Positions 39,769 to 64,000 of a stretch of DNA of 64,000 bases are shown one piece after another. The notes beneath the pieces are model-generated. The model did no database searches. It saw nothing but the letters and a program-made list of their open reading frames with translations, and was not told the origin of the DNA. The stretch lies in the NCBI GenBank assembly GCA_937901455.1, contig CALDIA010000144.1, forward strand, positions 10,504-74,503. The letters are read 5' to 3'. The stretch comes from an uncultured Bacteroidales bacterium (GTDB lineage: Bacteria > Bacteroidota > Bacteroidia > Bacteroidales > WCHB1-69). Position 1 is the stretch's first letter. Each line of letters begins with the position of its first letter. Both the position numbers and the translations under genes were made by a program.

Positions 39769-40844
39769 TGGAGCGTTTTTTTCAATCAGCCTTGACGGAG
39801 CGAGAGGGGGTGGAACAGCCCGTGTCGGTGAACCCGAATCTGATTCGCAAAAAGCGTAAGGATTTGTCGGTGGATGACTATGTGGCAGGTATTCTTGGTG
39901 GAGATTGGATGGTGTTGAGCAGGGCAATTACCATGATAGAGAGTGCCAATGTGGCACACTTGCAGATGGCCCAGGATGTTATTGAGCGTTGTCTGCCCTA
40001 TGCGGGAAACTCTTTCCGTGTTGGCATCACAGGGGTCCCTGGCGTGGGGAAGAGCACGTTCATAGAGACTTTCGGCAATATGTTGACCGAGATGGGGCAC
40101 AAGGTGGCAGTGTTGGCAATCGATCCAAGTAGCGAGCGCTCCAAGGGTAGCATTTTGGGAGACAAGACGCGAATGGAGACACTCTCCGTCAATCCGAAAG
40201 CCTTTATACGCCCGTCACCGTCTGGGAGTACCCTGGGCGGGGTTGCACGCAAAACTCGCGAATCCATCATTCTTTGCGAAGCCTCCGGCTATGACATCAT
40301 CATTGTGGAAACCGTGGGCGTTGGACAGTCTGAAACAGCTGTCAAGTCAATGGTGGACTTTTTTCTCCTATTGATGCTTGCTGGCGCGGGCGATGAACTG
40401 CAAGGCATTAAACGCGGTATCATGGAGATGGCTGATGCACTGGTCATTAATAAGGCTGATGGTGACAACAAACGTAAGGCAATTCAGGCCCAATCACAAT
40501 ATAAAGCAGCCCTGAAATTATTTCCCCAGCCAGAAAGCCAATGGACAGTGCCTGTGGAGGTGTGCTCTGCCCTCGAAAATGTGGCTGTGGACAAAGTATG
40601 GGAGATTATGACCCGTTATGAGACCCATACCAAAGGCAATGGCTTTTTTGAACGGAACAGAACCAACCAATTGGTCAATATCTTCTACAATTGGATACAG
40701 TTCACTCTCCAGAACAATTTCTATAACCGAACCTTTACCCAACAGGAGATAGAACGCCTATTGCCCTTGATACGTCTCCGCAAAATCTCTCCCTACAAAG
40801 CCGCTACTCTGTTGATAGACGAAGTCGCCAAGACTACTGACTGA
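39768..40844 (+). CDS. meaB: MeaB/ArgK-family G3E GTPase (methylmalonyl-CoA mutase chaperone type)
   Basis: GITGVPGVGKST, ETVGVGQSE and INKADG motifs. It overlaps lon by 1 nt (TAATG). Confidence 0.85.
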   Translation: MERFFQSALTEREGVEQPVSVNPNLIRKKRKDLSVDDYVAGILGGDWMVLSRAITMIESANVAHLQMAQDVIERCLPYAGNSFRVGITGVPGVGKSTFIETFGNMLTEMGHKVAVLAIDPSSERSKGSILGDKTRMETLSVNPKAFIRPSPSGSTLGGVARKTRESIILCEASGYDIIIVETVGVGQSETAVKSMVDFFLLLMLAGAGDELQGIKRGIMEMADALVINKADGDNKRKAIQAQSQYKAALKLFPQPESQWTVPVEVCSALENVAVDKVWEIMTRYETHTKGNGFFERNRTNQLVNIFYNWIQFTLQNNFYNRTFTQQEIERLLPLIRLRKISPYKAATLLIDEVAKTTD

Positions 40845-43635: not shown

Positions 43636-43665
43636 GGGTGTTGTTTTTGTCTTGTTAGTTGGGCG

Positions 43666-43673
43666 CAAAAATA
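43666..43673 (-). promoter_or_regulatory. -7 box TATTTTTG for the amidase gene
   Basis: Motif lies 31 nt upstream of ATG 43635. Confidence 0.45.
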
Positions 43674-46535: not shown

Positions 46536-47981
46536 TTAGAATTTGAATCCCAAGGTGGCGATTACTCTGTGGTATGTGTGGTTAATGTGTGCGGGATCCA
46601 CATAGTTGTTACCATTTCTGTATAACCAATAGTCGTCCTTGGAGAATCCAAACACATAGGCCATGTCAAAGAAGACACGTTTTGAACGAATGCCAAAGCC
46701 GGCGGAAGCGTAGTGGGCACTGGCCAACTTTTTGCTGTCTTCCAACTTGTATGGAGAGGTTATGAAGTTATAGCCTGCGCGCAGATAGAGCAATTGTGTC
46801 AGGGCGACCTCACCGCCCAAGCGGAAGGAGTGGCTGAGACCATATTTGTTGACAATGTCCTCATTCTCCGTGTTGAAACTGTAGTCGTCGGCAGATAGTT
46901 TTGCCAAGGAGTAATCGGTGAGCTCATACTCTGCCGATACAAAAGCTCTTTTCTTGATGATGAAAGCAGCGCTGAGGTTAGCTTTCAAAGGCGTGGTGAG
47001 CGCAAAACGATAGTTGTTTTCGTATTCTGAGAACTCATCAGTGTTATCTGTCCAGTTGGAAGTAAAGGAGCGATAATAGTAGTCTTTGATATTCCAGAAG
47101 AAGGTGGGGGTTTGGAACCCTAAGCCAAATCTGAAGAAGGAAACCGGTTGGTAAATCAAGCCCATCTTGAAGTTGATGCCCGAACCAGTGTTGTGTTGTT
47201 TGGTCATCACAGTATAATCAGTAATGCCGGATAAAGGCTGACCATCGGCGGCACTTTCGTTGAAGGTGGTCCGTTGGGTAATGTCCAGAATCGGAAACCC
47301 GAGGCCTGCACCGATAAAGAGTTGGTCGTTATAGTTGCCGCCAAAGTTGATGGTGATCTCATCTATTGCGCCTGAAGTAGTCACCGTGGCTTTTTGATAG
47401 AGATCCTTATTGTGAAATGGACTCCAATACATGGAACTGTTGCCAGGGATGGTGTCCAACACCCATGTGTCGAAAGCTAACTGTGCATCAAGACCTAAAG
47501 AGGCAGAGTTGTTGGCAGATGCTAACAATGGGTCTGTGAATGAGGAGTTGGTTACGCCTTCAATACCTACGGAATTGTTGTAGTCTTTCAGGCGATTATA
47601 GCCAAAGCCAAAGTGCCAATAGCGCCAGCGTGACTCCTCTTTTAAAATCTGGGAGCTGATGACAAGACCCACTTGAGGAACTGCATATTTCATCTTTTTG
47701 CTGATGCGTTCACCGCCATTATAGTTGGTTTCGTTTTCATGGATGGACAGAGACATAGGGGTGAACGATAATTCTGATTTTTTGAAGAGTCCGATGGCGG
47801 CAGGGTTGCTGATCAGGGAGGAAAAATCACCACCCACAGCACCAAAGGCACGTCCGGCACCCATATATCTGGCGGTTCCTACGTAGTCTGTCTGGGAAAA
47901 AAGGAATGCTTCATAATCATTTTGGCCTATCAATGCATAGGATATGCACAAACTGATGGCGATAAAAAGGATTTTTTTCAT
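46536..47981 (-). CDS. Outer-membrane beta-barrel protein, FadL/PorV-like
   Basis: Signal peptide, N-terminal plug-like motif YMGAGRAFGAVGGDFSSLISNPAAIG, alternating amphipathic strands and a terminal F (ATLGFKF). Confidence 0.7.
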   Translation of the reverse strand: MKKILFIAISLCISYALIGQNDYEAFLFSQTDYVGTARYMGAGRAFGAVGGDFSSLISNPAAIGLFKKSELSFTPMSLSIHENETNYNGGERISKKMKYAVPQVGLVISSQILKEESRWRYWHFGFGYNRLKDYNNSVGIEGVTNSSFTDPLLASANNSASLGLDAQLAFDTWVLDTIPGNSSMYWSPFHNKDLYQKATVTTSGAIDEITINFGGNYNDQLFIGAGLGFPILDITQRTTFNESAADGQPLSGITDYTVMTKQHNTGSGINFKMGLIYQPVSFFRFGLGFQTPTFFWNIKDYYYRSFTSNWTDNTDEFSEYENNYRFALTTPLKANLSAAFIIKKRAFVSAEYELTDYSLAKLSADDYSFNTENEDIVNKYGLSHSFRLGGEVALTQLLYLRAGYNFITSPYKLEDSKKLASAHYASAGFGIRSKRVFFDMAYVFGFSKDDYWLYRNGNNYVDPAHINHTYHRVIATLGFKF

Positions 47982-48031: not shown

Positions 48032-49657
48032 TTATCTGTGACCTCCGCTGCTGTGAGAGGAACTACTGCCATGGGAAGAGGTGCTGCTGCTGTGTGAAGA
48101 GCCACTATAGCTGCTTCTAGAAGAGGAACTTCCACTGTTGTAGCTGCTTCTGGAGGAAGAACTTCCACTGTTATAGCTACTTCTAGAGGAGCTGCCGCTA
48201 TTGTAGCTGCTTCTGGAGGAAGAACTGCTACTCGGTGTATAGCTGCTGCGAGAAGAAGAACTTCCACTGTTATAGCTGCTTCTAGAAGAGGAACTTCCAC
48301 TATTGTAGCTGCTTCTGGAGGAAGAACTGCTACTCGGTGTATAACTGCTGCGAGAAGAAGAACTTCCACTGTTAGAATTACTTCTGGAAGAGGAACTGTT
48401 GCCAGGAGTGTAATTGCTTCTGGAAGAACTGTTGTAGGAGGAGGGAGTAGGTCTCGTGGTGGTTGTGCGCGTGCTGCCGTCATTGGATCTGATAATCGTA
48501 GTGGTGGCAGGTCTTGTTGTTGTGTTAGTGCTCGTTCTCGCCGGGGTTGTTGTGTTAGTTGTAGTCGTTCTACTCTGGGTAGAAGGCGTTGTTGTTGTGC
48601 GACTTGGTGTGGCGGGAGTGGTAGTCGTTCTACTTGTACTCGTACTATTGATAGTGTTGGTTCTGGCAGGCGCAGATGCGTTGTCGTTTACCGTGCGGGT
48701 ACTGACAGTACTGTTGCCAGCAGACGTGTTAGTCATGGTGCGGCTGGCCGATGTGGAAGTGTTGTCCGAAGTACTATAGCTGGTCGCTAAGGTCTGATAC
48801 TGCTGGTTGAAAGAAGAAGGTGAACTGACAGTGGAATAACGGTTGTTGTTGTCGTTGTTTGTGTATGTGGCACCGCCAAAAGCATTGTAGTCCATATCTC
48901 TATTGCCGTTGCGTCCATTGCCTACAGAAGGCCCCACATTTTCACGATGTCCATAGTGGTAAGTGTTGTTGTGGTCATGGTTGTTGTGGTAGAAATCGCT
49001 TGCCCAATGGTGCCCCGGATGGTTCCAGTAGTCGAAAGGACCATGGTGTCCTGGATGATTGTTCCAATGGTGGAAGTGATGATAGTGGAAAGGATCATAG
49101 TAGCCCCACCCCCATCCATAGTTGAAGCCATAATAGTCGTAGCCATAGTAGTAGGGGCGTACATAGTAGCTTGGCCACCACCAGTTATAGCCCAGATAGA
49201 TGCTATAACCCCAGCTGTAGGGATTGTAATCGTACCAATATGTGTTCGTGAACCAAGGATCGTAGTAGCCCCAGCCGCAGTGTACGTTGGTATGGAATCT
49301 CCGTAGTCGTGATGTGTAATAGTAGTCATAATAGTCATCATCAGAGTAGGTGCTGGTATAATTGTTGACAGCCTGTTCGGAGATATAGTTGGTGATGACG
49401 GGCTCACTTTGCCCCGGATAAAATGTCTGAGTGCGCAGGAGATTTCCATCCTCATCGTACTCATAAACGATGCTGTCAGGCTGCACTTCAGCAGGTTGGG
49501 TTGTGCTCTGAGCCATCTTTGTCTGGCTATTTGCTGCCCTGTATTGGCAGTCAGTAGATGACGAGTAGATGTCATCATAAACCGTATATGTTTCTGTCAT
49601 ACAAGAAGTAAGAAGAAAAGCAACGGCTGCTGTAGCGATTAGAAATAGTTTTTTCAT
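48032..49657 (-). CDS. Lipoprotein with a Tyr/Trp/His-rich segment and a long Ser/Thr/Arg-rich repetitive C-terminus
   Basis: Lipobox FLLTSC. Aromatic segment YYDPWFTNTYWYDYNPYSWGY...HYHHFHHWNNHPGHHGP. The C-terminus is (SSSSRSSYNSG)n. Confidence 0.75.
   Translation of the reverse strand: MKKLFLIATAAVAFLLTSCMTETYTVYDDIYSSSTDCQYRAANSQTKMAQSTTQPAEVQPDSIVYEYDEDGNLLRTQTFYPGQSEPVITNYISEQAVNNYTSTYSDDDYYDYYYTSRLRRFHTNVHCGWGYYDPWFTNTYWYDYNPYSWGYSIYLGYNWWWPSYYVRPYYYGYDYYGFNYGWGWGYYDPFHYHHFHHWNNHPGHHGPFDYWNHPGHHWASDFYHNNHDHNNTYHYGHRENVGPSVGNGRNGNRDMDYNAFGGATYTNNDNNNRYSTVSSPSSFNQQYQTLATSYSTSDNTSTSASRTMTNTSAGNSTVSTRTVNDNASAPARTNTINSTSTSRTTTTPATPSRTTTTPSTQSRTTTTNTTTPARTSTNTTTRPATTTIIRSNDGSTRTTTTRPTPSSYNSSSRSNYTPGNSSSSRSNSNSGSSSSRSSYTPSSSSSSRSSYNSGSSSSRSSYNSGSSSSRSSYTPSSSSSSRSSYNSGSSSRSSYNSGSSSSRSSYNSGSSSSRSSYSGSSHSSSTSSHGSSSSHSSGGHR
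48060..48430 (-). repeat. Coding tandem repeat: 33-36-nt units nested in a near-perfect 102-nt duplication
   Basis: The block starting tattgtagctgcttctggaggaagaactgctactcggtgtat at 48199 recurs at 48301 with one mismatch seen. The units encode SSRSSY[NT][SP]-type repeats. Confidence 0.8.
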
Positions 49658-51285: not shown

Positions 51286-52059
51286 ATGGATGAAAGACTT
51301 GAAGCGTTTCAGCAATTGCTGAACATCATGGACGACCTGCGCGCCAAGTGTCCGTGGGATCGCGAACAGACCTTTGACTCGTTACGTTGCCTGACCATTG
51401 AGGAGACTTATGAATTGTCGGACGCTATTGTTGGGAAGAATTATGATGATATGTGCAAGGAGTTGGGCGACCTGCTCCTGCACATCGTCTTTTATGCTAA
51501 GATTGCCGAGGAACATCAATTGTTTGACATCGCAAAGGTCATTCGGCAATTAAACGACAAGTTGGTTCGCCGACATCCTCATATTTATGGAGATGCTGAG
51601 TCGAATACCGCTTCCGAAGTTCGTCAAAGTTGGGAAAAGATTAAGTTGCAGAAAGAGGGTAACCGTTCCGTGCTGGGCGGTGTGCCACAATCGTTGCCAG
51701 CCCTGATTAAGGCATTCCGAATTCAAGAAAAGGTTAGTGGGGTAGGGTTCGACTGGGACAATACCAGTCAAGTGTGGGAAAAGGTTCAAGAGGAACTCCA
51801 GGAACTGCAAACAGAAGTGGCTGCTCATTCCGACAAGATGGAAGATGAGTTTGGAGATGTGCTTTTTGCCCTCATCAATTATGCCCGATTTCTCCATATT
51901 ACCCCCGAAGATGCTCTTGAAAAAACAAATCGTAAGTTTATCAAGAGATTCCAATATATTGAGAAACAGGCAAATATATCTAATCGAAAGATTACAGACC
52001 TCTCCTTGGAAGAGATGGAGGCCTATTGGCAAGAGGCTAAATTGTCAGAAACATTATAA
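51286..52059 (+). CDS. mazG: Nucleoside triphosphate pyrophosphohydrolase MazG
   Basis: CPWDREQTFDSLRCLTIEETYELSDAI plus a second EEL..E motif. Confidence 0.9.
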   Translation: MDERLEAFQQLLNIMDDLRAKCPWDREQTFDSLRCLTIEETYELSDAIVGKNYDDMCKELGDLLLHIVFYAKIAEEHQLFDIAKVIRQLNDKLVRRHPHIYGDAESNTASEVRQSWEKIKLQKEGNRSVLGGVPQSLPALIKAFRIQEKVSGVGFDWDNTSQVWEKVQEELQELQTEVAAHSDKMEDEFGDVLFALINYARFLHITPEDALEKTNRKFIKRFQYIEKQANISNRKITDLSLEEMEAYWQEAKLSETL

Positions 52060-52069
52060 TAAATCTATT

Positions 52070-53908
52070 ATGTATAATAAAATAATAGTATATATAATAT
52101 TATTGTTGACTATCACTCCGCAGATTGGCTTGTCGCAGAAGCGTTCCAAGGCCGTGGAGTATTGCGAGAAGGCAGAAAAGGCGCTCAACCAACGCAACTT
52201 TGACAAAGCGTTGCAATATCTTCATCAGGCGGCGCAGAAGGATCCCAACTATCCTGATACCTATATTCTCATGGGTGATGCGTACAATTTTTCCTTGCGT
52301 TCCGATTCGGCGGCCTTATGCTATGACCACGCCATTGAGTTGATTGGCGATCCAGATCCATTATTGTACTACATTGCGGCATCTGAGTGCTTAAAGTGTG
52401 GTAAGTATGAGCTGGCCTTGAAGCATTATGAAACCTTTTTGGTGAAGGGAGTGCAATATACGGATGTGTTGACTGATGCCCAGAAGGGTGTGGCTAATTG
52501 CCGTTTTGCTATTGAGGCGATGCGTAATCCTGTGGCTTATGAGCTTCAGAACTTAGGCGCCCATATTAATTCTGAGTGGGATGAATCATTGGCGACGCTC
52601 ACTGCAGATGACGAGACCATCATTTTCACGGTTAAGCGGCCTAAGGATGAACATACGGTCTGTGCGTTTTGCGTAAATGAAGAAGATTTGTATAGTGCTC
52701 ACCGCAAGGATGGTGCTTGGCAACCGCGTCAGGTGCTCGGCGCACCCGTCACTACTGGCTACAACGAGGGTGCTCAGAGTTTGTCACCTAATGGCGACTA
52801 TCTGCTGTACACTATCTGCAATGCCGACTATGGTATTGGCAGCTGTGATCTGTATTGGGCCAAAAAAATCGGCGATCGCTGGTCGCGACCACGCAATTTC
52901 GGTGCTCCCGTCAACTCAAGCGCGTGGGAGAGTCTCCCTACCATAGCGGCTGATGGCGTCACTATATACTTCTCCTCTTCCAGGCCAGGAGGTTTCGGAG
53001 GTAAGGATATCTGGAAGACGACCATGACCAGTGAAGGCGCCTTCACTCCGCCTGTCAACTTGGGTGCTACTATCAACACGCCAGAGGATGATGCCGCCCC
53101 GTTTATCCATAGTGACGGACATACCCTCTACTTTGCTTCTAATGGACGAGTGGGAATGGGGGGCTACGACCTCTACTACAGCACTCTCCAACCCGATGGC
53201 AGCTGGAGCGAGCCTCAAAACCTGGGATATCCTATCAATACGTATAATGATGAAATCAATATCTTCATCAATGCACAAGGTACTACTGCCTATATTGCCT
53301 CCGACAAAGCGGGCGGCTTCGGAGGGCTTGACTTGTACAGCTTCGACCTGGACGATGACCTGCGTCCGAGTCCCGTGACCTACATCAAAGGGCGTGTCTT
53401 TGATGCTGAAACAAAGGTGCCCCTCGCCGCGGAGGTCCAGATGATAGACCTGGAGACTAACCAACTGCTTACCGGAACTATGTCTGACGAGGAGACTGGT
53501 GAATATCTGGCTTGCGTGCACACCGGAAAAAATGTGCTTCTCAATGTATCGCATCCCGACTACCCTTTCTATTCCGAAAACTTCCAGTTGGCGCAGTCAT
53601 ACAACCAGCTGCAACCCTACCGGAAAGACATCTCCCTGCAACGGGCAGAAGTGGGCACCGTTGTCGTGCTGAAGAACATCTTCTTTGACTTTGACAAAAG
53701 CGAGCTCAAGGCGGAGTCTTATCTGGAACTCGACAAGTTGGTGGACTACTTGAAGCATAACCGCATTCGGATTGAGATTGGCGGCCATACCGACAACACC
53801 GGTTCCAGTGAATACAACGAACAGCTCTCCAAGGCCAGGGCAAAATCGGTTTACGACTATCTTTTAGCTCATGGAATCTCCGAAAATCGTCTCTCCTATA
53901 GGGGCTAA
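52070..53908 (+). CDS. TPR / PD40-propeller / OmpA-domain outer-membrane-associated protein, ending at an in-frame TAA inside the OmpA domain
   Basis: Start trimmed to MYNKIIVYIILLLTITPQIGLSQ. It has TPR-like helices and PD40 repeats (YFSSSRPGGFGGKDIW, YFASNGRVGMGGYDLY). The OmpA-like region reads FFDFDKSEL...GGHTDNTGSSEYNEQLSKARA. The same frame continues after the TAA with GMQKPIDSNDTEEGRANNRRTEFTIIP to 53992. Confidence 0.8.
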   Translation: MYNKIIVYIILLLTITPQIGLSQKRSKAVEYCEKAEKALNQRNFDKALQYLHQAAQKDPNYPDTYILMGDAYNFSLRSDSAALCYDHAIELIGDPDPLLYYIAASECLKCGKYELALKHYETFLVKGVQYTDVLTDAQKGVANCRFAIEAMRNPVAYELQNLGAHINSEWDESLATLTADDETIIFTVKRPKDEHTVCAFCVNEEDLYSAHRKDGAWQPRQVLGAPVTTGYNEGAQSLSPNGDYLLYTICNADYGIGSCDLYWAKKIGDRWSRPRNFGAPVNSSAWESLPTIAADGVTIYFSSSRPGGFGGKDIWKTTMTSEGAFTPPVNLGATINTPEDDAAPFIHSDGHTLYFASNGRVGMGGYDLYYSTLQPDGSWSEPQNLGYPINTYNDEINIFINAQGTTAYIASDKAGGFGGLDLYSFDLDDDLRPSPVTYIKGRVFDAETKVPLAAEVQMIDLETNQLLTGTMSDEETGEYLACVHTGKNVLLNVSHPDYPFYSENFQLAQSYNQLQPYRKDISLQRAEVGTVVVLKNIFFDFDKSELKAESYLELDKLVDYLKHNRIRIEIGGHTDNTGSSEYNEQLSKARAKSVYDYLLAHGISENRLSYRG

Positions 53909-54180: not shown

Positions 54181-54295
54181 CAAGTTGAATTTTTAGTGTA
54201 AACTATAGTAATGTAGTATGCTATATAAGAAGACGATAACACAAAAAAAGAGAAGAAATAATAATAATTAATAATAACAAACAATAAAAAACAGT

Positions 54296-57200
54296 ATGAA
54301 AAAATTATTATCAATTTGCTTTCTAAGCATTCTGCTGGCGCTTCTGAACGTCCCCGTTCAAGCGCAGACAACACAGTCATGCTGCTTTTGGTTGGAGAAT
54401 CTCCAGCCACAAACGTTGCATGATATTGCCAACGTTCCTGGTGGTGGCGCTGCCCACCTGCCTGGCACTGGTGGCGATGTTGTGTTGAACAACACCATGA
54501 ATCCGGTGTTGCATGGTATTGATCCGGCTACTGGTCAATGCCAACAGACGGACTACTACAAGATCCGCTTTGCGAATACTTGTAATCTTCCAGCCACCAC
54601 GAAAGTGTCTATTGAATGGAAGTTGTATCGCGATGGACAACTTGTCAACGGTAATCTTTCTGATTATGCAGATTTCCGTATCTATACCAGATATGGTAGA
54701 TTGCATAACAGCATGAACCCGATGTCTGCCGGTCAGACCTATTGTGACACGATGGGTTGGATCGGTGGTCGTGTTAGCGGCCTTGGTACCTGTTTGTACA
54801 ACACAAGCACGGATCTTTACCCGAATTACCCGAACTACGATGATGTGTATTGTGCAGGCGGTTATCCTGGCGCCACGGAAGTTGAACCTCTGCCCTTGGA
54901 TTTTGCTAATGAATCTGCTGAAGCTTGGGGTTACACCTATTTTGCAAACGAGATGGGCTTGGACTATTTCAACCTGCCTTTCTTCGAAGCTACGGACCAT
55001 GTGATTGTTATATGCTGGAAGCAAGTTGGTAACTACTCTTTAGTGGTTGGTCTCCGCGAGCGTACCGGTGGTACCGATTGGGGAACCCTCTATTGGGACG
55101 AGAACCAACAACACGCTATCGGTGGTCACCAGAGCTGCTGTGGCGCCCTGCTGGCCCAAGACTCTATCCACTATCTTGTACAGACTAATAAGCAAAAGGC
55201 TGTTTGCGATGGCGAGACCTGGGACTTCGGTAGCCCTGTCGCCACTTTCTCCGTTGAGAACCATTACCATGTAATCTTCGGTGACTCCGTTTGTGGTCAC
55301 TTCAGAGTAGATAGCTTGGTTCAACTTGACTTCTATACCCGTATCAATCCTGACATCATTGCTGACGACTTCGAGATTTGCGTGGGTCTTCCTTTGACCG
55401 CTGATCAGGTGGCTGCTCACACACCCGCTGTGAACACAGATGCTCCTGGTATTATCGACTACGCTATCTGGTGGTCACAAGATGGTGAAACCTGGACCAC
55501 GACCACGCCGAGCTATGATGCCGTACAGCTGGGTGGCTATACATGGTATGTGAAACAAATCAACCATTACGATGCCGTTACTCCGGACGATTTCTATTGC
55601 GAGGGCAAGATCGACACACTCACCATTACGGTGCTTCCGCTCTATCCTCCTGTAATCGATCCTGCTCAATACGAGTTCTGCTATAGCCAAATGCCGACCA
55701 CATTCCCGATCCCTGCCTCTTACGATGATCGCGAAGAATGTGCTACCGGTATTGTATGGCAATATGGTACTACCAACCTTGATACTGTTGCCGATGGCGC
55801 TTCTTATCCTGTTGCTATGACGGACTACTTCACCAGCAACGTGAACAAGACCATCACCTTCAATGTGTTCACCACTAACGGCTATGCAAACTCTGAGCCT
55901 ACCGTGGTAACCATCGTGATGAACGCCTCCCCTGTATTGGTTGGCGACAACTCCTTGGTTGACGATACCCTTTGTCCGAGAGGTGAGGAACTGTTGAAGA
56001 CCCAATTCTCCGACAGCAATATTGGACAAACCAACAGCACCATCTCCTATTCTTGGACTTTGAACGGAACTGCCATCAACATCAATACTGCTTCCATCAC
56101 TGGCACTGCACCCGATGCTTGTTCCGGTACTAATGTATATGTAGTGACTGCTATCGCTACCAGCGAGGCTGGCTGTATGGACACCCTCGTCCGTACCTTT
56201 AAGTTGACCGCTCAGGACACCAACGCTATTGTGGTTACTCCTAAGCCGACAACCATCACTAACATTACTGTTTCTGGTTGCGACACTACTGCCCAAGCTT
56301 TCGTGGCTGGCCGTCGTACGGTGGATGATCTTCAAATACTCTTGAATATTATCGACCATTGTGAGAACATTACCGAGGTGCTCTATAGCGCTACGGTCAC
56401 CACCGCTGAATGCGAGGTTTATGTGGACAGAACCTATATTCTCAAGGATGAATGCGGCAACGTTTCTAATCCTTATGTTGAGCACTGGACCATCAAGAAT
56501 GACTTTGCTCCTGTTATCAATGGTGAATTGACTACCATTGCTCCTGTTCCTGTTCAAAACTGTCAGTTCCAAGTTCCTGCTTACAATGTATTGTTGAATG
56601 CATTCAATGAAGCTTATGAAGTGAACTTCGAATGTGCTGGCAACCATGTTGATCATGTTGAATTCTACTTGGATGCCGCTCATACTACTTTGGCTCCTAT
56701 GCACTTGATCTTTGAGGAAAGCGACACCGCTTACGTATATGCTATCGCTACCGACAAGTGTGGTAACGAATCTGTTAATACTATGGTATTCATGCTGCAA
56801 CGTCCTCCTCGTATGGTTATCGACGGTGGTATCTTGGCAGTTCCTGCTGACATCTGTTTGCATGACACCGTTTTCTTGTCTTTCGACACGAGTTTCGTAC
56901 ATAACGCTACTCCGTTGATCGATGGCAATGGCGAGTCCTACTACAACCTTGAGTGGACTGCCAACCCGAACGATGGTAGTATTATCTATCATACCAGTCC
57001 TACCGCTTATGGTGTTCCTGCAACCGCCAACACCGATTACACGTACACCATTCACGTAACTGACTATTATGGTTGTGTGGATTCTATCGCTGCTGATCCT
57101 GTACATGTACACGGTCTTCCTACTGTTGAGATCGAAGAGATCATCCTCAATGGTTCCACCTTCCCGTTGTGTCCTAACTATGGCAACCTTACCATCCACT

Positions 57201-60200
57201 CCATTACTGAGCCTGGTAATGGTGGCGAAATCGTTCGTCATATTTGGAGCGGTGAGAGTGTTAACTTGCCTCTTGAACCGAACATGGACACCACGTTCGT
57301 AACCATCCTCCCGGATAGTTGTAACAAGACTTACACTGCCTACTTGACCGTTTTGAATAATGACGGTTGTAAAGCTTCTACCTCTTATTCCTTCGATGTT
57401 GTGGATAGCATCGCTCCTGTTGTGGGCAATGTAATTACTGAGCTTATTCTCGATCCCGGTGATAGCTGCTTGATGACAGTGCCTAACTTGTTGCCTTACT
57501 TCAATAATAATAATGTAAGCGACAACTGCTACGGCTTTGGTTATATCACCATCACCCAAAGCGTTGCGGCTGGCAGCAAGATTGCTGTTGAGACTCCGGT
57601 CGTCATGACCCTCACTGACCGCTGCGGCAACGCCACGACCCATACCATCACCCTGAAGAGCAGCGCTCCTCTCGCCGTCACCATCACCGCTGACGAACCT
57701 GAGATCTGCCAAGGTGAAACTGTTCATTTGACTACTACCGTTGAAAATGCTGTTGTTCCCGTAATTTATACTTGGACCAACAACACACATAACCCTGACC
57801 TCACCGTTAATCCTACGGAGGCAAACCACGTTTATACCGTTACCGTTACCGACAACATTGGTTGTCAGGCTGCCGGTTCTATTGACATTCTTGTTCACCA
57901 CACCCCTGTTGCTGCTGACGTTATTCTGACCCAAACAGCTAACACTTATTGTGAGAATGAGGATGGCATTTATGATGGTACTATTTCCGCCGCTGCTAAC
58001 CACGCCGACCTCGTTGCTTGGAGAATGTCCGGCGAGAATGTATGGCATGATTTCTCTTACGTATATACCGGTCTCCAAGAGGGTACCTACTACTTCGACC
58101 TTCTGACTGAGTTCGATTGTGAGTCAGACCATATCGCCAGCATCGTGGTAGGACGTGACACTAACGTGATCGTTCCTATTACTACCACGACTCCTAACGC
58201 ATGGTGCGTAGCTCCGTTTGACGGCTCTATCACCATTACTAATCCTCAAATGGGTTACACCTATGAGATTATCAACCTGCCGAATTCCGCCGTTACTTAT
58301 GAAGGTGGCGACATGATCTATGACAACTTGATCTATGGTCACTACTCCATCCATGTAACGACTGACAAATATTGTACCTATGTTAAGGAAGACGTTATCG
58401 TTGACAGCACCAGAATTTATCCTGTTGTGGCTACGGTTATTACTCCTAAGACCCGTTGTGACGAGCCCGATGGTACAATCACCATTACCAACGCTATGCC
58501 TGGTTATACCTACACAATCAATGATATGACCATCGTTGGTACTCCTGCCCAGTTCACCGGCCTTAACAATGGTTCCTATACCTTGACCGCCGTTTCTGAT
58601 TATGGTTGCGCTAAGAACTTCCTGATCACTGTGAACTCTACAACCGTGGATCCTGTTCACCCAGCTATCACTGTTGTTCCTAACTCTGTATGTGATCCTA
58701 CTATCACAGCTAATGGTTCTATAACCATCAGCCAACCTATCGCCGGTTACACCTATACTTTGAATGGCGTGACTGTTGTTTCGGATGGTTCCGCTATCCA
58801 ATTTAACGAACTCGGTACTACAGGTGAGAATGAGACCTACTACACCCTGACTATCACCGATGAACTTGGTTGTACTTCTGTCTTTACCGACGCTGTACCT
58901 TCCTCACCTTTCAAACCTGTATTCAACAATGAGATTACTGTTAATCCTAACGTGAACTGCGAAGGTACAACACCTAACGGTTCTATTGTAATCAATGAGG
59001 AAGCTGGTTATACCTATTATACTTATACTTTGATGAACCAAACCCCGATGTTGTTGGCTGCTACGGTTAACTTGCCTGCCGGTCAATACAGAATCGTAAA
59101 GGTTCATGACGCTACTGGTTGCGAAGTTAGCACCAATGTGAATATTGTTAACCAAATCGCTCCTTACAACTGGGCTGTCAGCTTGACTCCTGACCAGAAC
59201 TGTGACCTTGAGGCTGGTAATGGTACAATTACAGTGACCAGCGCTACTGATAACTTCATCTTCTTGTTGGCTGATGAAGATATGGAATTAGTTGGTCAAA
59301 ATACCAATGGTGTTTTTGTCGCTTTGAACAGTGGTGATTATTATCTTGCTGCCACCAACACCAATACCACTTGTGTTTATGACACTGTGATTACTATTGG
59401 TACAGATTTCGTTTATCCTCAACCCGACGCAGTTGCTTTCGCTAATTACAATTGTAAAGAAGAGAAGAACGGTACTATCGTAGTTACCAATTCTGGTGAC
59501 GCTGTTCTTCCTCTCACTTACACTTTAATCGGTTATGCTTCCCAAGTTATTGCTACAAACAATACTGGTATTTTCAATGGCCTTAATGAGGGTAATTATG
59601 CAGTTTATACTAGCAGTGCAATGAATTGCGGTTGGTACACTTATGTTCAAGTTGTTGACAGCGCTTTCTTGCCTCCATTGGTACACCACCAGACTCCTAA
59701 CACCATGTGTGCTCCTACCTTTGAGAAACCGGGTAACGGTACTATCATCGTGACTGCACCTATGGACACCAACTTTATCTATTACTTCGAGAACTCCAAT
59801 GAGCCTAACGTATTGGATACCGTTGGTTACTTTACTCCTGATTCTTACGTGATGTACTGGTTAACTGACGACCTCTACACCATTCACGTATATGATCCTC
59901 TTACTGGTTGTTCTTTGGAGGATACCGCTTATGTTCCTCATGCTGATGTTGAAGTTACTTTCGATCCTGAAGTTATCGCCAACGTTAACTGCGAGGCTCC
60001 TTACACCGGCATTATCATCATGAACGCTACCAGCCAGAATCCTGATGCCGACCTCGTTTACTCTATCGACAATGAGAACTTCTACAGCAATAACATGTTC
60101 CAGAACCTTGCTCCTGGTGTTTATACCATATATGTAAAGGATCTTGACTTGGATTGCTCTTATGCTTCTGAAGAGATTGTTGTGGAGAACAATAACGAGT

Positions 60201-63200
60201 TCGCTCCTGATGTGACTGTTGACGGTCCTACCGTAATCTGTCTGAACGCTGAGGCTCAGCTCGTTGCTTCTGCTACCAGCGCTTTGGATGGCGACACTGT
60301 ATTCACCTACTCCTGGTACTCTGTATGTAACGGTACGGTTGAAGGTCCTATCCAACCTATCTACACTGGTCACACTGGCATCTGCACCTATGAACTCACT
60401 GTTACCAGCGAGCTCACTGGCTGTACCACTGTTATCACCATCGACGTAGAGGTTGAACCCAACCCGGCCATCACCTTCCTCGTAAATCAAGAGGTTTATA
60501 CTGAGGATGAAGTGAACATATGTCACAACGACTTCCCGATTAACCTCGGTGTTGATCCTACTAACTTAGTATCTTATTTATGGTCTAACCAAGTGACTGA
60601 GTCCAACTTCGACGTTACATTACCGAGCGGCAACTACTGCTTCTTCATGGTAACTGTAACCGATCAATGGGGCTGCCAAAACGTTGACTCTATAGGTGTA
60701 TTCTCTATGCCTACCTATAATTTGGATGTTATGGATTCCATCTGTACAGATGCTCAGACATTTGCTTCTCTCGATTCTACGTACGCTGACACTCTCACCG
60801 TTCAACCTGAGATTCATCCTGCTATGTTCTACACCTGGGTTGATAGCTTGCAGTCTGTCTATGGTTGCGACAGTGTTGTATATCATAATGTAACTGTAAT
60901 GTCAGCTCCTACTATTGAATACGATTCCACCCTTGTTACTGTATACTGTGCCGGTCAGACCTTCGTTGCTCCTGGTTACACCATCGTGGAGAACAACAGC
61001 CCTGTAACAGAGTCTGGTTGGTTAATGTACGACATTGACAACCAAGATTGGCTTGTTTTCGACACAGAGACTCCGCTTACTCGCGCACAAGATGCTACCA
61101 TGTTGATGCCTTACGCTATCAATGCTTGTGGTGAGTCTTATTCTGAACCTATCAACTTGGTTGTCAACGATGTTCCTACTATCGACTCACTCACACTGAA
61201 TTGCGAAGCTGAGCCTTGTGCAGCCGAGTTCTGTGCTGGCGACGAAATCACTGATAAGTTCGCTACTCCTGAATATGATTGCAGACATTGGAATGTAAAT
61301 TGTGAGACTGCTTGGGTATATGCCGCTTCTGCTGAAGGTCCTTGGACTGTATTCGACAGTACTGTTACTTCTGCTATGAACGGCCTTTATGTAGCTTACC
61401 AAGTATCCAATGAGTGCGGTTCTACCGTTTCTAATGCTATCCAGATTACTGTTGATTCCGTTCCTCAAGCTACCATTACGCCTGTTACCGTATGTGCTGC
61501 TGATGGTCTGACTGTTGAGGATCTCAACCTCACCTATACCGCTGGCAACACTGCTACCGCGCCTGCAACTTCTGTTATTATGCCGGAGATGCCTGATGGT
61601 CTTGTAGCCGGTACTTATGAGATGTGGGTTGAAATGACCAACAAGTGTGGTACTGACACCACCAACCACGTCACTGTTACCGTCAACGATGTTCCCAACA
61701 TTGCTGAGATTTCTCAAGACGGTACTTGCGTTGACAACTTCTCCCTTGTATTGCCTAACATCGTATGGAATGGCAATGAGGGTGACTCCACACTCGTTAT
61801 GCTGAATGAGGACAACGAATGGGAGCCTGTTACTGTTGTTGAGTTGGCTAACGTGGAAATGAACGGTGTTAATGTTCGTTACGTTGCTACCAATGAATGC
61901 GGTTCCGATTCTTCCAACATTATTGAAATCTCCATTATTGACGTTCCTGAAGTTACCTTAGTTGTTGAACCCGACACTGTTTGTCAGAACGGTGATGTTG
62001 AACTTACAGCTACGGCCAATTGGAACAATGGCGATGGCGACATCGTTTACGAAATGAGTGAAGATGGCGAAACCTTCAGCGAGGTTGACAATGTGAATAC
62101 AATGACTGAGGCCGGTACCTTCTATTTCAGAGCTACTGCTTCTAACAAGTGTGCTCCTGATGGCGTTGTTTCCAACGTTGTTACCGTTGTGGTTGAAGAA
62201 GCTCCTGTCTTGAATCCTGAAGATACTGCCGTTACCGTATGTAACAATGCTACTGATACCATCACAGTCACCACCAATAAAGAAATTGTGTTGACTGGTG
62301 CTCCTGAGTGGATCACTCTCGAAGGTAATGACATCGTTATTGTTCCTACCACCGATGTTGAGGCTGGTGACTACACCTTCACCCTCTCCACTGTTGAGAC
62401 CAAGTGCGATGCTATCGCTACCACCATCACCGTTCACATGAATGCTGTTCCTGTTATCGAAACCTTTGCCGTTGCTGAAACGCTGTATTGCTTCAACGAT
62501 ACTATTAGTACTATTTACAACATCACTTGGAATGCTGAAGAACATGCCGATGCGTTGATCCAGGTTGTACATGGTGAAGACACCACTGCTTTTGTTGCTC
62601 CTTATACCATCTCTATGGCCGACACCAACCTGGTATTGTTACTCTCTGCAACCAATGATTGTGGTACTACCACCCAAGCCATCAATGTAAATGTTTCTCT
62701 GCCTGTTGAACTCGTTATCACGGGTGTTGACACTTGTGCTGGTCTTACTGTTGACAACTTCGTTCCTGTTCCTGATTACACGCTCTATGGTGCAACTCAG
62801 GTTGTGGCTGAAGGTTGGACTGTTGATGGTGAGAATGTTGACGCTGACTATGAGATGGAAGCTGGTATGCATACTGTATCTTACTACGTAACTACTCAAT
62901 GTCAGACTTACGAATCCAATGTGGTTGAACTTAAAGCCTTCGACGAGCCTTTCATCGTGGATCGTGAATCTGTTACCTTTGAGATTTGTGAAGGCCAAAC
63001 ACTCACCGATCCTGAGTTGACCTATGAACTCGATGGCGCTACCTTAGTTTCTGAGACTTGGACCATCAATGGTGAAGAACTTGATTGGACAATTCCTTAT
63101 GATACCACCTACAACAATGCCTCTATTAAGTATATTGTAGAGACTGCTTGTGGTGCTGATACCGCTACTTGGACGCTCACAGTACACGCTCTGCCTGTAC

Positions 63201-64000
63201 CTGAGATCTTAGGCGATACGATTATTTGCCACGATGGTTCTACCGAGTTACGTGTATCTGATGAGTATGAGACTTATCAATGGTACATGAATGGTGAAGA
63301 AATTGATGGTGCTACTCAGTCCACCTACACTGTAAGTGCCGAGGATTTGGATGAAGAAGACGCTTCTTACACCTTCACCGTTGTGGTAACCGATGAATTT
63401 GGTTGTCAATCCACCACTTCTACCAATGGTTCCTACCAAGCTATCGATGCTAACGAGGTAACTGTTCAAGTAACCAACTCTCCTCGTTTCATCTTCAAGT
63501 ATGCTGGCAATGAGACCCATTATATTGATGGTATCGAGACCCTTGATCCTAATGATCCTTCTGCTTTGAACAATAACTTGGTTTACACTTGGGAAGTATT
63601 TAATCCTTGTTTCAATGATGATACCTTGGTATATGTTACCTTCGATATCTATCACAATGATACTTTGATTGATAACGCCACTATTGGTGACTACTTGTCC
63701 AACGCTCAACTTTCTGGTAACTACAATGAGTTCTGGAATACTTCTATCGAATTCTCCTTTGAATATGGTAGTGCTATTACCCATAATACGCAGAGTCCTA
63801 TTACCCGTTATAATAAGGCTCAGGCTGGTGCTACTACCACTTATGATAACCACTTCCCGTATTCTACGATCTTCGCCAGTAGTAACACCTATGATGATTT
63901 TTACTTGCACTTCTTGGCTGACAATGTTTATACACAAACTATTCGTCCGTTCAGAATCCCTGGTGAATATAAGATCATCTACAAACTCTATGCTACCAGC
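54296..64000 (+). CDS. Giant secreted cell-surface protein (SprB-like/HYR-like multi-repeat adhesin candidate), 5' partial: 3,235 codons with no stop before the window end
   Basis: This gene is not in the ORF track. I translated frame +2 manually from ATG 54296 to 64000 and met no stop codon. The frame was checked at 58199, 59999, 62039 and 63962. Signal peptide MKKLLSICFLSILLALLNVPVQAQ. There are dozens of Cys-bracketed ~80-95-aa modules. Every other + strand ORF the track lists here is in a single different frame. Confidence 0.9.
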   Translation, partial: MKKLLSICFLSILLALLNVPVQAQTTQSCCFWLENLQPQTLHDIANVPGGGAAHLPGTGGDVVLNNTMNPVLHGIDPATGQCQQTDYYKIRFANTCNLPATTKVSIEWKLYRDGQLVNGNLSDYADFRIYTRYGRLHNSMNPMSAGQTYCDTMGWIGGRVSGLGTCLYNTSTDLYPNYPNYDDVYCAGGYPGATEVEPLPLDFANESAEAWGYTYFANEMGLDYFNLPFFEATDHVIVICWKQVGNYSLVVGLRERTGGTDWGTLYWDENQQHAIGGHQSCCGALLAQDSIHYLVQTNKQKAVCDGETWDFGSPVATFSVENHYHVIFGDSVCGHFRVDSLVQLDFYTRINPDIIADDFEICVGLPLTADQVAAHTPAVNTDAPGIIDYAIWWSQDGETWTTTTPSYDAVQLGGYTWYVKQINHYDAVTPDDFYCEGKIDTLTITVLPLYPPVIDPAQYEFCYSQMPTTFPIPASYDDREECATGIVWQYGTTNLDTVADGASYPVAMTDYFTSNVNKTITFNVFTTNGYANSEPTVVTIVMNASPVLVGDNSLVDDTLCPRGEELLKTQFSDSNIGQTNSTISYSWTLNGTAININTASITGTAPDACSGTNVYVVTAIATSEAGCMDTLVRTFKLTAQDTNAIVVTPKPTTITNITVSGCDTTAQAFVAGRRTVDDLQILLNIIDHCENITEVLYSATVTTAECEVYVDRTYILKDECGNVSNPYVEHWTIKNDFAPVINGELTTIAPVPVQNCQFQVPAYNVLLNAFNEAYEVNFECAGNHVDHVEFYLDAAHTTLAPMHLIFEESDTAYVYAIATDKCGNESVNTMVFMLQRPPRMVIDGGILAVPADICLHDTVFLSFDTSFVHNATPLIDGNGESYYNLEWTANPNDGSIIYHTSPTAYGVPATANTDYTYTIHVTDYYGCVDSIAADPVHVHGLPTVEIEEIILNGSTFPLCPNYGNLTIHSITEPGNGGEIVRHIWSGESVNLPLEPNMDTTFVTILPDSCNKTYTAYLTVLNNDGCKASTSYSFDVVDSIAPVVGNVITELILDPGDSCLMTVPNLLPYFNNNNVSDNCYGFGYITITQSVAAGSKIAVETPVVMTLTDRCGNATTHTITLKSSAPLAVTITADEPEICQGETVHLTTTVENAVVPVIYTWTNNTHNPDLTVNPTEANHVYTVTVTDNIGCQAAGSIDILVHHTPVAADVILTQTANTYCENEDGIYDGTISAAANHADLVAWRMSGENVWHDFSYVYTGLQEGTYYFDLLTEFDCESDHIASIVVGRDTNVIVPITTTTPNAWCVAPFDGSITITNPQMGYTYEIINLPNSAVTYEGGDMIYDNLIYGHYSIHVTTDKYCTYVKEDVIVDSTRIYPVVATVITPKTRCDEPDGTITITNAMPGYTYTINDMTIVGTPAQFTGLNNGSYTLTAVSDYGCAKNFLITVNSTTVDPVHPAITVVPNSVCDPTITANGSITISQPIAGYTYTLNGVTVVSDGSAIQFNELGTTGENETYYTLTITDELGCTSVFTDAVPSSPFKPVFNNEITVNPNVNCEGTTPNGSIVINEEAGYTYYTYTLMNQTPMLLAATVNLPAGQYRIVKVHDATGCEVSTNVNIVNQIAPYNWAVSLTPDQNCDLEAGNGTITVTSATDNFIFLLADEDMELVGQNTNGVFVALNSGDYYLAATNTNTTCVYDTVITIGTDFVYPQPDAVAFANYNCKEEKNGTIVVTNSGDAVLPLTYTLIGYASQVIATNNTGIFNGLNEGNYAVYTSSAMNCGWYTYVQVVDSAFLPPLVHHQTPNTMCAPTFEKPGNGTIIVTAPMDTNFIYYFENSNEPNVLDTVGYFTPDSYVMYWLTDDLYTIHVYDPLTGCSLEDTAYVPHADVEVTFDPEVIANVNCEAPYTGIIIMNATSQNPDADLVYSIDNENFYSNNMFQNLAPGVYTIYVKDLDLDCSYASEEIVVENNNEFAPDVTVDGPTVICLNAEAQLVASATSALDGDTVFTYSWYSVCNGTVEGPIQPIYTGHTGICTYELTVTSELTGCTTVITIDVEVEPNPAITFLVNQEVYTEDEVNICHNDFPINLGVDPTNLVSYLWSNQVTESNFDVTLPSGNYCFFMVTVTDQWGCQNVDSIGVFSMPTYNLDVMDSICTDAQTFASLDSTYADTLTVQPEIHPAMFYTWVDSLQSVYGCDSVVYHNVTVMSAPTIEYDSTLVTVYCAGQTFVAPGYTIVENNSPVTESGWLMYDIDNQDWLVFDTETPLTRAQDATMLMPYAINACGESYSEPINLVVNDVPTIDSLTLNCEAEPCAAEFCAGDEITDKFATPEYDCRHWNVNCETAWVYAASAEGPWTVFDSTVTSAMNGLYVAYQVSNECGSTVSNAIQITVDSVPQATITPVTVCAADGLTVEDLNLTYTAGNTATAPATSVIMPEMPDGLVAGTYEMWVEMTNKCGTDTTNHVTVTVNDVPNIAEISQDGTCVDNFSLVLPNIVWNGNEGDSTLVMLNEDNEWEPVTVVELANVEMNGVNVRYVATNECGSDSSNIIEISIIDVPEVTLVVEPDTVCQNGDVELTATANWNNGDGDIVYEMSEDGETFSEVDNVNTMTEAGTFYFRATASNKCAPDGVVSNVVTVVVEEAPVLNPEDTAVTVCNNATDTITVTTNKEIVLTGAPEWITLEGNDIVIVPTTDVEAGDYTFTLSTVETKCDAIATTITVHMNAVPVIETFAVAETLYCFNDTISTIYNITWNAEEHADALIQVVHGEDTTAFVAPYTISMADTNLVLLLSATNDCGTTTQAINVNVSLPVELVITGVDTCAGLTVDNFVPVPDYTLYGATQVVAEGWTVDGENVDADYEMEAGMHTVSYYVTTQCQTYESNVVELKAFDEPFIVDRESVTFEICEGQTLTDPELTYELDGATLVSETWTINGEELDWTIPYDTTYNNASIKYIVETACGADTATWTLTVHALPVPEILGDTIICHDGSTELRVSDEYETYQWYMNGEEIDGATQSTYTVSAEDLDEEDASYTFTVVVTDEFGCQSTTSTNGSYQAIDANEVTVQVTNSPRFIFKYAGNETHYIDGIETLDPNDPSALNNNLVYTWEVFNPCFNDDTLVYVTFDIYHNDTLIDNATIGDYLSNAQLSGNYNEFWNTSIEFSFEYGSAITHNTQSPITRYNKAQAGATTTYDNHFPYSTIFASSNTYDDFYLHFLADNVYTQTIRPFRIPGEYKIIYKLYATS
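57900..60200 (+). repeat. Nine tandem ~85-aa SprB-like protein repeats inside the giant gene (divergent at DNA level)
   Basis: Recurring pattern [T/V]PNxxC-x(3-8)-[ND]G[ST]I[TIV][IV]-x(5-9)-Y[TI]Y...GxY...C. Examples are TPNAWCVAPFDGSITITNPQMGYTYEI, TPKTRCDEPDGTITITNAMPGYTYTI, VPNSVCDPTITANGSITISQPIAGYTYTL and NPNVNCEGTTPNGSIVINEEAGYTYYTYTL. Confidence 0.75.
60900..63210 (+). repeat. Nine tandem ~80-95-aa repeats of a second, unnamed Cys-bracketed module inside the giant gene
   Basis: Each unit starts after [VA]P, has a Cys 8-13 aa in, and ends N[EKD]CG-x3-[ST]N-x-[IV]-x-[IV]-x-V-x(2)-[VA]P. Examples are VSNECGSTVSNAIQITVDSVP, ATNECGSDSSNIIEISIIDVP, MTNKCGTDTTNHVTVTVNDVP and ATNDCGTTTQAINVNVSLP. 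Confidence 0.7.

Follow-up and report, generated by a model that had tools for sequence, protein, structure and literature searches.

The domain junctions of SiiE, an adhesin of Salmonella, are stiffened by Ca2+ and not by disulfides. Giant surface proteins of Bacteroidota commonly carry arrays of SprB-type repeats (>35,000 clusters), a repeat type represented in Pfam by PF13573; our literature search found no paper stating inter-module disulfides for these repeats. A precedent exists in the grappling-hook protein GhpA of Aureispira, which has disulfides between nearby immunoglobulin (Ig)-like domains (bioRxiv 10.1101/2024.01.29.577165). Here, we describe a nine-unit array related to the SprB repeat in a giant gene of an uncultured Bacteroidales bacterium (WCHB1-69; assembly GCA_937901455.1). 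The window, by which we mean the whole stretch of DNA that was analyzed, comprises 64,000 nucleotides (nt) and corresponds to positions 10,504 to 74,503 of the forward strand of contig CALDIA010000144.1. We put at roughly 70% the probability that the nine units, located mid-stalk in a giant Bacteroidales surface protein, are Ig-like beta-sandwich modules of a divergent SprB type, and that neighboring modules are stapled to each other by disulfides. Taken alone, the array is an ordinary construction element in the giant surface proteins of Bacteroidota. This example adds no more than a divergent subfamily that is missed by Pfam's model, and the sole part that might surprise specialists is the inter-module connectivity, which we infer from comparisons across the repeat family.

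Nine two-cysteine units

The array lies on the plus strand at window positions 57923 to 60217 and corresponds to amino acids (aa) 1210 to 1975 of a 3,393-aa host protein. It consists of nine back-to-back units of 78 to 94 aa, each of which contains exactly two cysteines (here called Cys1 and Cys2), and the stretch holds no further cysteine. Unit 1 spans 57923..58177 (cysteine codons at 57950 and 58118), unit 2 spans 58178..58429 (58205 and 58373), and unit 3 spans 58430..58663 (58457 and 58607). They are followed by unit 4 at 58664..58930 (58691 and 58871), unit 5 at 58931..59173 (58958 and 59120), and unit 6 at 59174..59425 (59201 and 59372), and the array is completed by unit 7 at 59426..59680 (59453 and 59627), unit 8 at 59681..59962 (59708 and 59909), and unit 9 at 59963..60217 (59990 and 60155). 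The initial annotation, which had placed nine repeats with a period of about 85 aa and a second cysteine in each at 57900 to 60200, is thereby confirmed. The spacing of the cysteines alternates along the array, with 50 to 67 aa inside units and 27 to 29 aa between units.

Across the nine units, five columns do not vary (C, G, I, Y, and C). The motifs quoted in the initial annotation are all present but are looser than was claimed: [TV]PN occurs in four of the nine units, although an Asn lies 2 to 3 residues ahead of Cys1 in eight of them, and [ND]G[ST]I is present in eight. Internal periodicity, which had been set as a test of the array, exceeds chance. When each unit was scored against a hidden Markov model (HMM) built from the other eight, the scores ranged from 27.4 to 52.0 bits, whereas 200 shuffles per unit gave means of 0.7 to 1.6 bits and maxima of 6.4 to 13.5 bits. 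At the DNA level, Tandem Repeats Finder detected no tandem array over this region, and the longest direct repeats are 14 to 28 nt long, with 63 to 93% identity, and are centered on the NG(S/T)I(T)V codons, in line with the earlier remark that the units share no long identical DNA. Codon-aligned DNA identity between units is 36 to 52%. As protein identity is only 16 to 40% (mean, 25%), the conservation that had been claimed at the protein level holds for the motifs and not beyond them.

Relation to the SprB repeat and predicted fold

The PF13573 model matches the array with 13.9 bits (E = 0.044), below its gathering cutoff of 28, and it matches four of the nine units taken singly (E of at least 0.0044; the best single match is unit 7). 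Other marginal Pfam matches on the array (PKD_3, Y_Y_Y, PEGA, SpaA, and CarboxypepD_reg) are all small beta-sandwiches. No precomputed PF13573 match is found in the 120 best relatives of the host protein, and an NCBIfam scan of the window part of the host protein gave no match because the C-terminal domain (CTD) lies past the window end. A word-indexed homologue search with the nine-unit alignment gave 574 candidates, none of them significant. An exhaustive search with the nine-unit profile, covering 1.84 billion representative proteins, retrieved 35,685 representative proteins (clusters) at E ≤ 1e-3 and 4,835 at E ≤ 1e-30. Proteins rich in PF13573 were retrieved at E values down to 0, and many of the matches are giant proteins with 20 to 78 matched stretches. 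Scanned with Pfam, the five top matches showed 15 to 21 PF13573 stretches each (429 to 717 bits), and the numbers of stretches found by the unit profile and by PF13573 were 21/21, 20/18, 18/18, 21/15, and 23/21. A CHU_C type B domain is present in one of these five.

The canonical SprB-type units, which were delimited with the window-derived HMM and then verified independently by Pfam, are ~77 aa long, contain two cysteines, and follow the pattern C-x-G-x(2,3)-[ND]GSITV-x(3)-GG-x(2)-PY-x-Y...F-x-x-L-x-x-G-x-Y-x-[IV]-x-V-x-D-x-x-GC. Comparison of the nine window units with 97 canonical units by hhalign, a check of the kind proposed in the initial annotation, showed that the two sets are related (probability, 98%; E = 2.5e-13; 68 columns), with both cysteines in register: Cys1 and Cys2 fall at columns 10 and 64 of the canonical units and 50 to 67 aa apart in the window units. 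Both sets are tandem all-beta units of ~80 aa that have in common the first Cys, [ND]G[ST]I-x-V, a strand of the form aromatic-x-aromatic, the pattern F-x-x-L-x-x-G-x-Y-x-[IV]-x-V, and, preceding the final strand, D-x-x-G-C. The window units differ in being without the GG-x-x-PY (GG-T-x-P-Y) motif and in having longer variable loops (78 to 94 versus ~77 aa). Thus, the C-x(3-6)-[ND]-G-[ST]-I-x-V half of the core motif is found in eight of the nine window units, whereas the GG-x-x-P-Y-x-[YF] half is reduced to the aromatic-x-aromatic strand. The PF13573 model is confined to the first 37 residues of the structural unit, the part that is less well kept in the window units.

These sequence comparisons support homology of the nine units to SprB-type repeats, as a divergent branch that lies below formal Pfam membership. 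The earlier description of the units as SprB-like therefore stands with respect to homology, given the profile search and the hhalign result, but not with respect to membership in PF13573. The case is also a warning for annotators, as PF13573 spans only half of the structural unit and tends to miss divergent members.

An AlphaFold2 (AF2) model of units 2 to 4, made from an alignment with 22 orthologous segments, is all-beta with ~7 strands per unit (mean predicted local distance difference test [pLDDT] score, 93.5; predicted template modeling [pTM] score, 0.69), and the three consecutive units take the form of tandem Ig-like domains. Foldseek comparison of this model with the Protein Data Bank (PDB) returned strings of Ig-like domains, comprising GhpA stem fragments (7 of the top 14 matches; E, 2e-6 to 4e-5, also given as 2e-6 to 2e-4; TM score to the query, 0.35 to 0.43), the SiiE BIg adhesin (PDB 2yn3 and 2yn5; E, 4e-6 to 1e-4), and eukaryotic Ig-superfamily ectodomains. 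When the PDB was searched by sequence, using the unit profile and the canonical consensus as queries, the matches were marginal only (pilin 6ixy, a gingipain Ig-like domain, phage decoration/PKD-like domains, and GhpA at E = 0.61), and no solved structure related by sequence to the nine-unit repeat was found in these searches. The model and its structural matches support the view, already held in the initial annotation, that the array is part of an extended stalk, here one of Ig-like modules in which it may act as a stalk element or spacer.

Connectivity of the cysteines

The regular spacing of the cysteines had at first been taken to suggest one disulfide per module. We compared the loss of cysteines in 269 proteins containing 5,506 SprB-type units and 4,593 adjacent unit pairs; of the 35,685 profile matches, the count covered the best 150. 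Cys1 of unit n was absent from 26 of the 4,593 adjacent pairs, and Cys2 of unit n+1 was absent as well in 25 of these 26 (P = 9e-60 by Fisher's test). The Cys1 and Cys2 of one unit were never jointly absent among 80 single losses, and joint absence of Cys2 of unit n and Cys1 of unit n+1 was seen in two cases only. The 25 co-loss events are distributed over 11 proteins, or 16 clusters at 60% identity, and the co-lost cysteines are 132 to 136 residues apart. Furthermore, Cys2 was missing in 36 of 631 units without a detected adjacent upstream SprB-type unit, compared with 31 of 4,593 internal units (an 8-fold difference; P = 1e-16). One relative (P0143, aa 3632 to 3778) provides an exception to the co-loss rule: its unit n+1 is without Cys2, and unit n has a doubled cysteine (CFSC) at the Cys1 site. 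In this protein, a local vicinal cysteine pair may replace the inter-module bond.

Mean-field direct coupling analysis (DCA) of 3,355 concatenated unit pairs (effective number of sequences [Meff], 2,734; match columns only) placed the coupling between Cys1 of unit n and Cys2 of unit n+1 third among all couplings, with a score of 4.55 against an inter-unit background of -0.06 +/- 0.15. Around this pair, columns 8 to 12 of unit n couple with columns 60 to 64 of unit n+1. The intra-unit couplings outline the topology of the module. Couplings 6-18 and 9-14/16 correspond to the A-B hairpin, with Cys1 (column 10) at its tip, and couplings 8-72 and 11-74 set the A' segment beside the C-terminal half of strand G. 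Couplings 57-67 and 59-65 correspond to the F-G hairpin, with Cys2 (column 64) at the turn, where strand G starts, and couplings of columns 25 to 27 with columns 60 to 62 bring the B-C loop near the F-G turn. DSSP assignment of the AF2 model agrees with this topology, showing isolated bridges at residue 7 and just past strand G. The two cysteines of one module would accordingly lie at opposite ends, separated by ~9 to 10 strand residues or roughly 30 Å. Together, the co-loss pattern and the placement of the cysteines at opposite ends of the module by DCA argue that the two cysteines of each unit are probably inter-module staples, joining Cys1 of unit n to Cys2 of unit n+1; the suggestion of one disulfide per module is not borne out by either line of evidence.

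Cysteines of the host protein are numbered below in the open frame from nt 54278, such that nt = 54278 + 3(p-1) for residue p; the corresponding residue of the full product (P0001) is this number minus 6. Inside the array, eight staples are predicted between Cys1 of one module and Cys2 of the next: C1225-C1366, C1310-C1444, C1394-C1532, C1472-C1615, C1561-C1699, C1642-C1784, C1726-C1878, and C1811-C1960. The rhythm of 27 to 29 aa extends into both flanks (C1196-C1225 and C1960-C1988), where Ig-like modules of other types adjoin the array. The preceding module (57701..57904, plus strand; EICQGETVHL...DNIGCQAAGSIDILV) scores 7.4 bits against the unit HMM, and the following module (VICLNAEAQLVA...SELTGCTTVITIDV) lies at 60218..60457 on the plus strand. 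A staple is predicted between C1144, the first cysteine of the preceding module, and C1281, the Cys2 of unit 1 (137 aa apart), and another between C1905, the Cys1 of unit 9, and C2049, the last cysteine of the following module (144 aa apart). Further downstream, a second run of ~8 two-cysteine Ig-like modules of another sequence type (~61415..63406, plus strand) shows alternating cysteine spacings of 25 to 30 and 51 to 59 aa, like the SprB-type array, and has weak Ig_7 and K319L-PKD matches only. Stapling of this kind may continue over most of the stalk, this second run included.

Conservation of the array in orthologues

At the array position, nine units are present in ~16 relatives of the host protein, down to 33% identity, and 12, 15, or 16 units in relatives that are more distant. 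When compared with the units of P0006 (46% identity), P0009 (35%), and P0016 (33%), each window unit agrees best with the one of equal rank. The same-rank matches and the fixed position down to 33% identity argue for an old array and support the view that it predates these lineages and has evolved without concerted evolution. This agrees with the initial annotation, in which the array had been described as old and under selection. A recent expansion at the DNA level was considered and rejected, given the lack of a DNA array, the low identity between units, and the match of the units to their orthologues by rank.

Host gene and its neighborhood

The array is encoded in a single plus-strand frame without a stop between 54278 and the window end. 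From its start ATG at 54296, the giant gene (54296..64000) has 3,234 of its 3,393 codons inside the window and would end ~477 nt beyond it; the full product, P0001, is 3,393 aa long and 100% identical over the 3,234 aa inside the window. The gene begins with a predicted Sec signal peptide (MKKLLSICFLSILLALLNVPVQAQ; 54296..54367, plus strand), which was read from the sequence and, judged by eye, shows the typical n-h-c layout. At the other end, aa 3315 to 3392 of P0001 match TIGR04183, the type A sorting domain of the T9SS (type IX secretion system), with 37.6 bits (cutoff, 23) and PF18962 with 37 bits (cutoff, 27). No match to a type B T9SS CTD (TIGR04131 or CHU_C PF13585) was found at the P0001 C terminus. 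Named relatives in NCBI are listed as [quoted passage not shown] and come from metagenome-assembled genomes (MAGs). The host protein is thus predicted to be a giant secreted protein, a type A cargo of the T9SS, with a probable location at the cell surface.

Two side observations concern the giant gene. The Bacteroidota O-glycosylation sequon D[ST][AILVMT] occurs 43 times in the whole of P0001, compared with 18.7 +/- 4.1 times in shuffles, and no enrichment is seen inside the nine-unit array (5 versus 4.0 expected); the Ig-like domains of GhpA have been reported to be glycosylated. On the opposite strand, the giant gene contains open reading frames (ORFs) at 55475-58078 (867 aa), 58124-58801 (225 aa), and 59861-60526 (221 aa). 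We rejected these as real genes, as they lie inside a conserved giant gene and the 867-aa ORF has no Pfam family match. They appear to be shadow ORFs, open to misannotation by automatic gene callers.

The immediate upstream neighbor (51845..53908, plus strand) encodes a PorE-like protein with TPR, PD40 beta-propeller, and OmpA domains, the domain order described for Porphyromonas gingivalis PorE (PMC12773672), and is conserved before the giant gene. It matches the family models of PorE (a T9SS component) and CHU_0125 over nearly its full length, below their cutoffs (~295 versus 600 to 620 bits); for NF052230, the score is 294.6 bits against a cutoff of 600. In the orthologous loci (L001 and L002, with P0005 and P0016, at 52% and 33% identity), synteny covers proS, mazG, the TPR/PD40/OmpA gene, the giant gene, an ABC transporter, trmB, and secE-nusG-rplK. 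Within the window, the only T9SS-related genes detected are the PorE-like gene and a weakly PorQ/PorV-like outer-membrane protein gene. The latter (46539-47981, minus strand) encodes a FadL/Toluene_X-like protein with weak similarity to the BamG, PorQ, and PorV models; it adjoins a gene for a 541-aa protein without a family match (48035-49657, minus strand), and the two are kept together beside proS in the orthologous loci. Elsewhere in the window, a 944-aa protein (40837-43668, minus strand) has both an N-acetylmuramoyl-L-alanine amidase domain and a CUB domain, the latter being unusual in bacteria. Most long ORFs between 20000 and 50000 are on the minus strand, and the GC skew is positive (up to +0.28) over ~20 to 50 kb of the window and slightly negative on either side.

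Proposed arrangement and alternative explanations

In the arrangement that we propose, the host protein would be exported by Sec and then recognized by the T9SS through its type A CTD, as in established T9SS biology, after which the CTD would be removed and the protein attached to the cell surface. The C terminus would be proximal, with the array mid-stalk and the N-terminal ~1,100 aa held off the cell. The modules would stack head to tail into a rod, in which the C-terminal end of each module would bear Cys1, at the A-B hairpin tip, and the N-terminal end would bear Cys2, in the F-G turn. Cys1 of module n would then face the F-G turn of module n+1, and a disulfide would join it to the Cys2 found there. 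The staples would produce a stiff covalent chain that resists force and proteases, and this chain appears to run on into the different Ig-like modules on either side of the array. Disulfide formation in this protein, its anchoring at the surface, and the stalk or spacer role of the array are all predicted features.

We find it fairly probable that the same holds for SprB-type repeats generally (>35,000 clusters, gliding adhesins included), such that they form a covalent chain through bonds between Cys1 of unit n and Cys2 of unit n+1 and are not independent disulfide-locked beads, and that here, through the heterologous flanking modules and the second run, most of the stalk is one stapled rod. 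If this is true, then disulfide staples would set the mechanics of the filaments, namely, their stiffness and the transmission of force in gliding or adhesion, and covalent bonds would make stiffened rods of SprB-like filaments, of adhesins, and of related T9SS cargo. It would also place limits on T9SS export, because stapled rods cannot be threaded unfolded, and it would bear on whether the cargo crosses the translocon fully folded and oxidized. As a by-product, a testable structural rule would be available for the whole repeat family, whereby the two conserved cysteines link neighbors and do not close modules.

Several points weigh against the stapled arrangement. Ten of the 25 co-loss events occur in one protein with duplicated super-repeats, and canonical SprB-type proteins are the source of all 25. 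Within the family of the window protein itself, cysteines are nearly never lost (3 single losses in 976 units), and the connectivity is therefore transferred to the window protein by homology. Units without a detected adjacent downstream unit are not richer in Cys1 absence (4 of 631). Surface anchoring, the stalk role, and the disulfides are predictions for a probably anaerobic organism, and the strict keeping of nine distinct units could reflect unit-specific binding and not a passive rod.

The default expectation for two-cysteine Ig-like domains is an intramodule disulfide, in which Cys1 and Cys2 of one module lock each beta-sandwich and successive modules are joined by the peptide linker only. 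Exactly two invariant cysteines per unit would be consistent with it, as would the weak intra-unit 10-64 coupling seen by DCA (0.7 to 0.8). We consider it improbable, however, as cysteines of the same unit are never co-lost whereas those joined by the proposed staple are co-lost in 25 of 26 cases, and as Cys2 is preferentially missing in units without a detected upstream neighbor. The geometry is also unfavorable: strand G starts at Cys2 (column 64), and Cys1 lies beside columns 72 to 75, where that strand reaches its C-terminal end, an estimated ~30 Å away. In another reading, the conserved cysteines would form no disulfides in vivo and would serve as buried core residues, metal ligands, or other modification sites, which would suit an organism that is probably an anaerobic Bacteroidales member and is represented by a MAG. 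Pairwise co-loss of cysteines 132 to 136 residues apart is, however, the signature of a bonded pair. Moreover, disulfides have been demonstrated in the periplasm of the anaerobe P. gingivalis (PMC12635249), and they are seen in the GhpA cryo-EM structures, so that unbonded cysteines seem highly improbable.

A different possibility is that the array is mainly adhesive, with each of the nine modules recognizing a partner and the cysteine staples being secondary. The identity and rank of the units are kept in orthologues down to 33% identity, the ~16 closest relatives all have nine of them, and SprB, which is built of related repeats, is itself an adhesin (PMC9870892). The 12, 15, or 16 units of more distant relatives would better fit a spacer of variable length, conservation is concentrated in the core or structural positions C, G, I, Y, L, and P, and Pfam scans of the array revealed no carbohydrate-binding or other binding family. 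We therefore regard a mainly ligand-binding array as rather unlikely, although it is compatible with stapled modules and does not exclude them. Lastly, the host gene could be an SprB orthologue whose array works as in gliding motility, given the related repeat type and the nature of the host as a giant T9SS substrate. This is hardly credible, as the CTD is of type A (TIGR04183) and not of type B/CHU_C, only nine SprB-type units are present in 3,393 aa, and the orthologues (the 120 best relatives) show no precomputed PF13573 match. In addition, no PorP/SprF-like or sprC/sprD-like neighbor is present, the neighbors being the PorE-like gene, the ABC transporter, proS, mazG, and trmB. Judged from these comparisons, the host protein is not an SprB orthologue.

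Comparison with known systems

The array resembles SiiE (PDB 2yn3 and 2yn5) in forming a rod-like tandem of Ig-like domains, but SiiE is without a sequence relationship to the host units and is a type 1 secretion substrate. GhpA (5,898 aa; PDB 9flp, 9fls, 9flu, 9flw, 9flx, 9fly, and 9g8b) and the host protein are both giant T9SS substrates. In GhpA, the stem strings together Ig-like domains, and disulfides connect nearby ones; the host array is alike by Foldseek, with marginal sequence similarity to the unit profile (E = 0.61). GhpA forms a heptameric hollow stem, and its likeness to the host is known from the monomer fold only. SprB of Flavobacterium johnsoniae (6,497 aa) and the host protein are both giant T9SS-secreted proteins composed largely of Ig-like repeats of one superfamily. 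As a type B substrate, SprB requires SprF, whereas the host protein has a type A CTD. The host protein is also half the size of SprB, its nine SprB-type units are flanked by other Ig-like module types, and its gene stands in another neighborhood.

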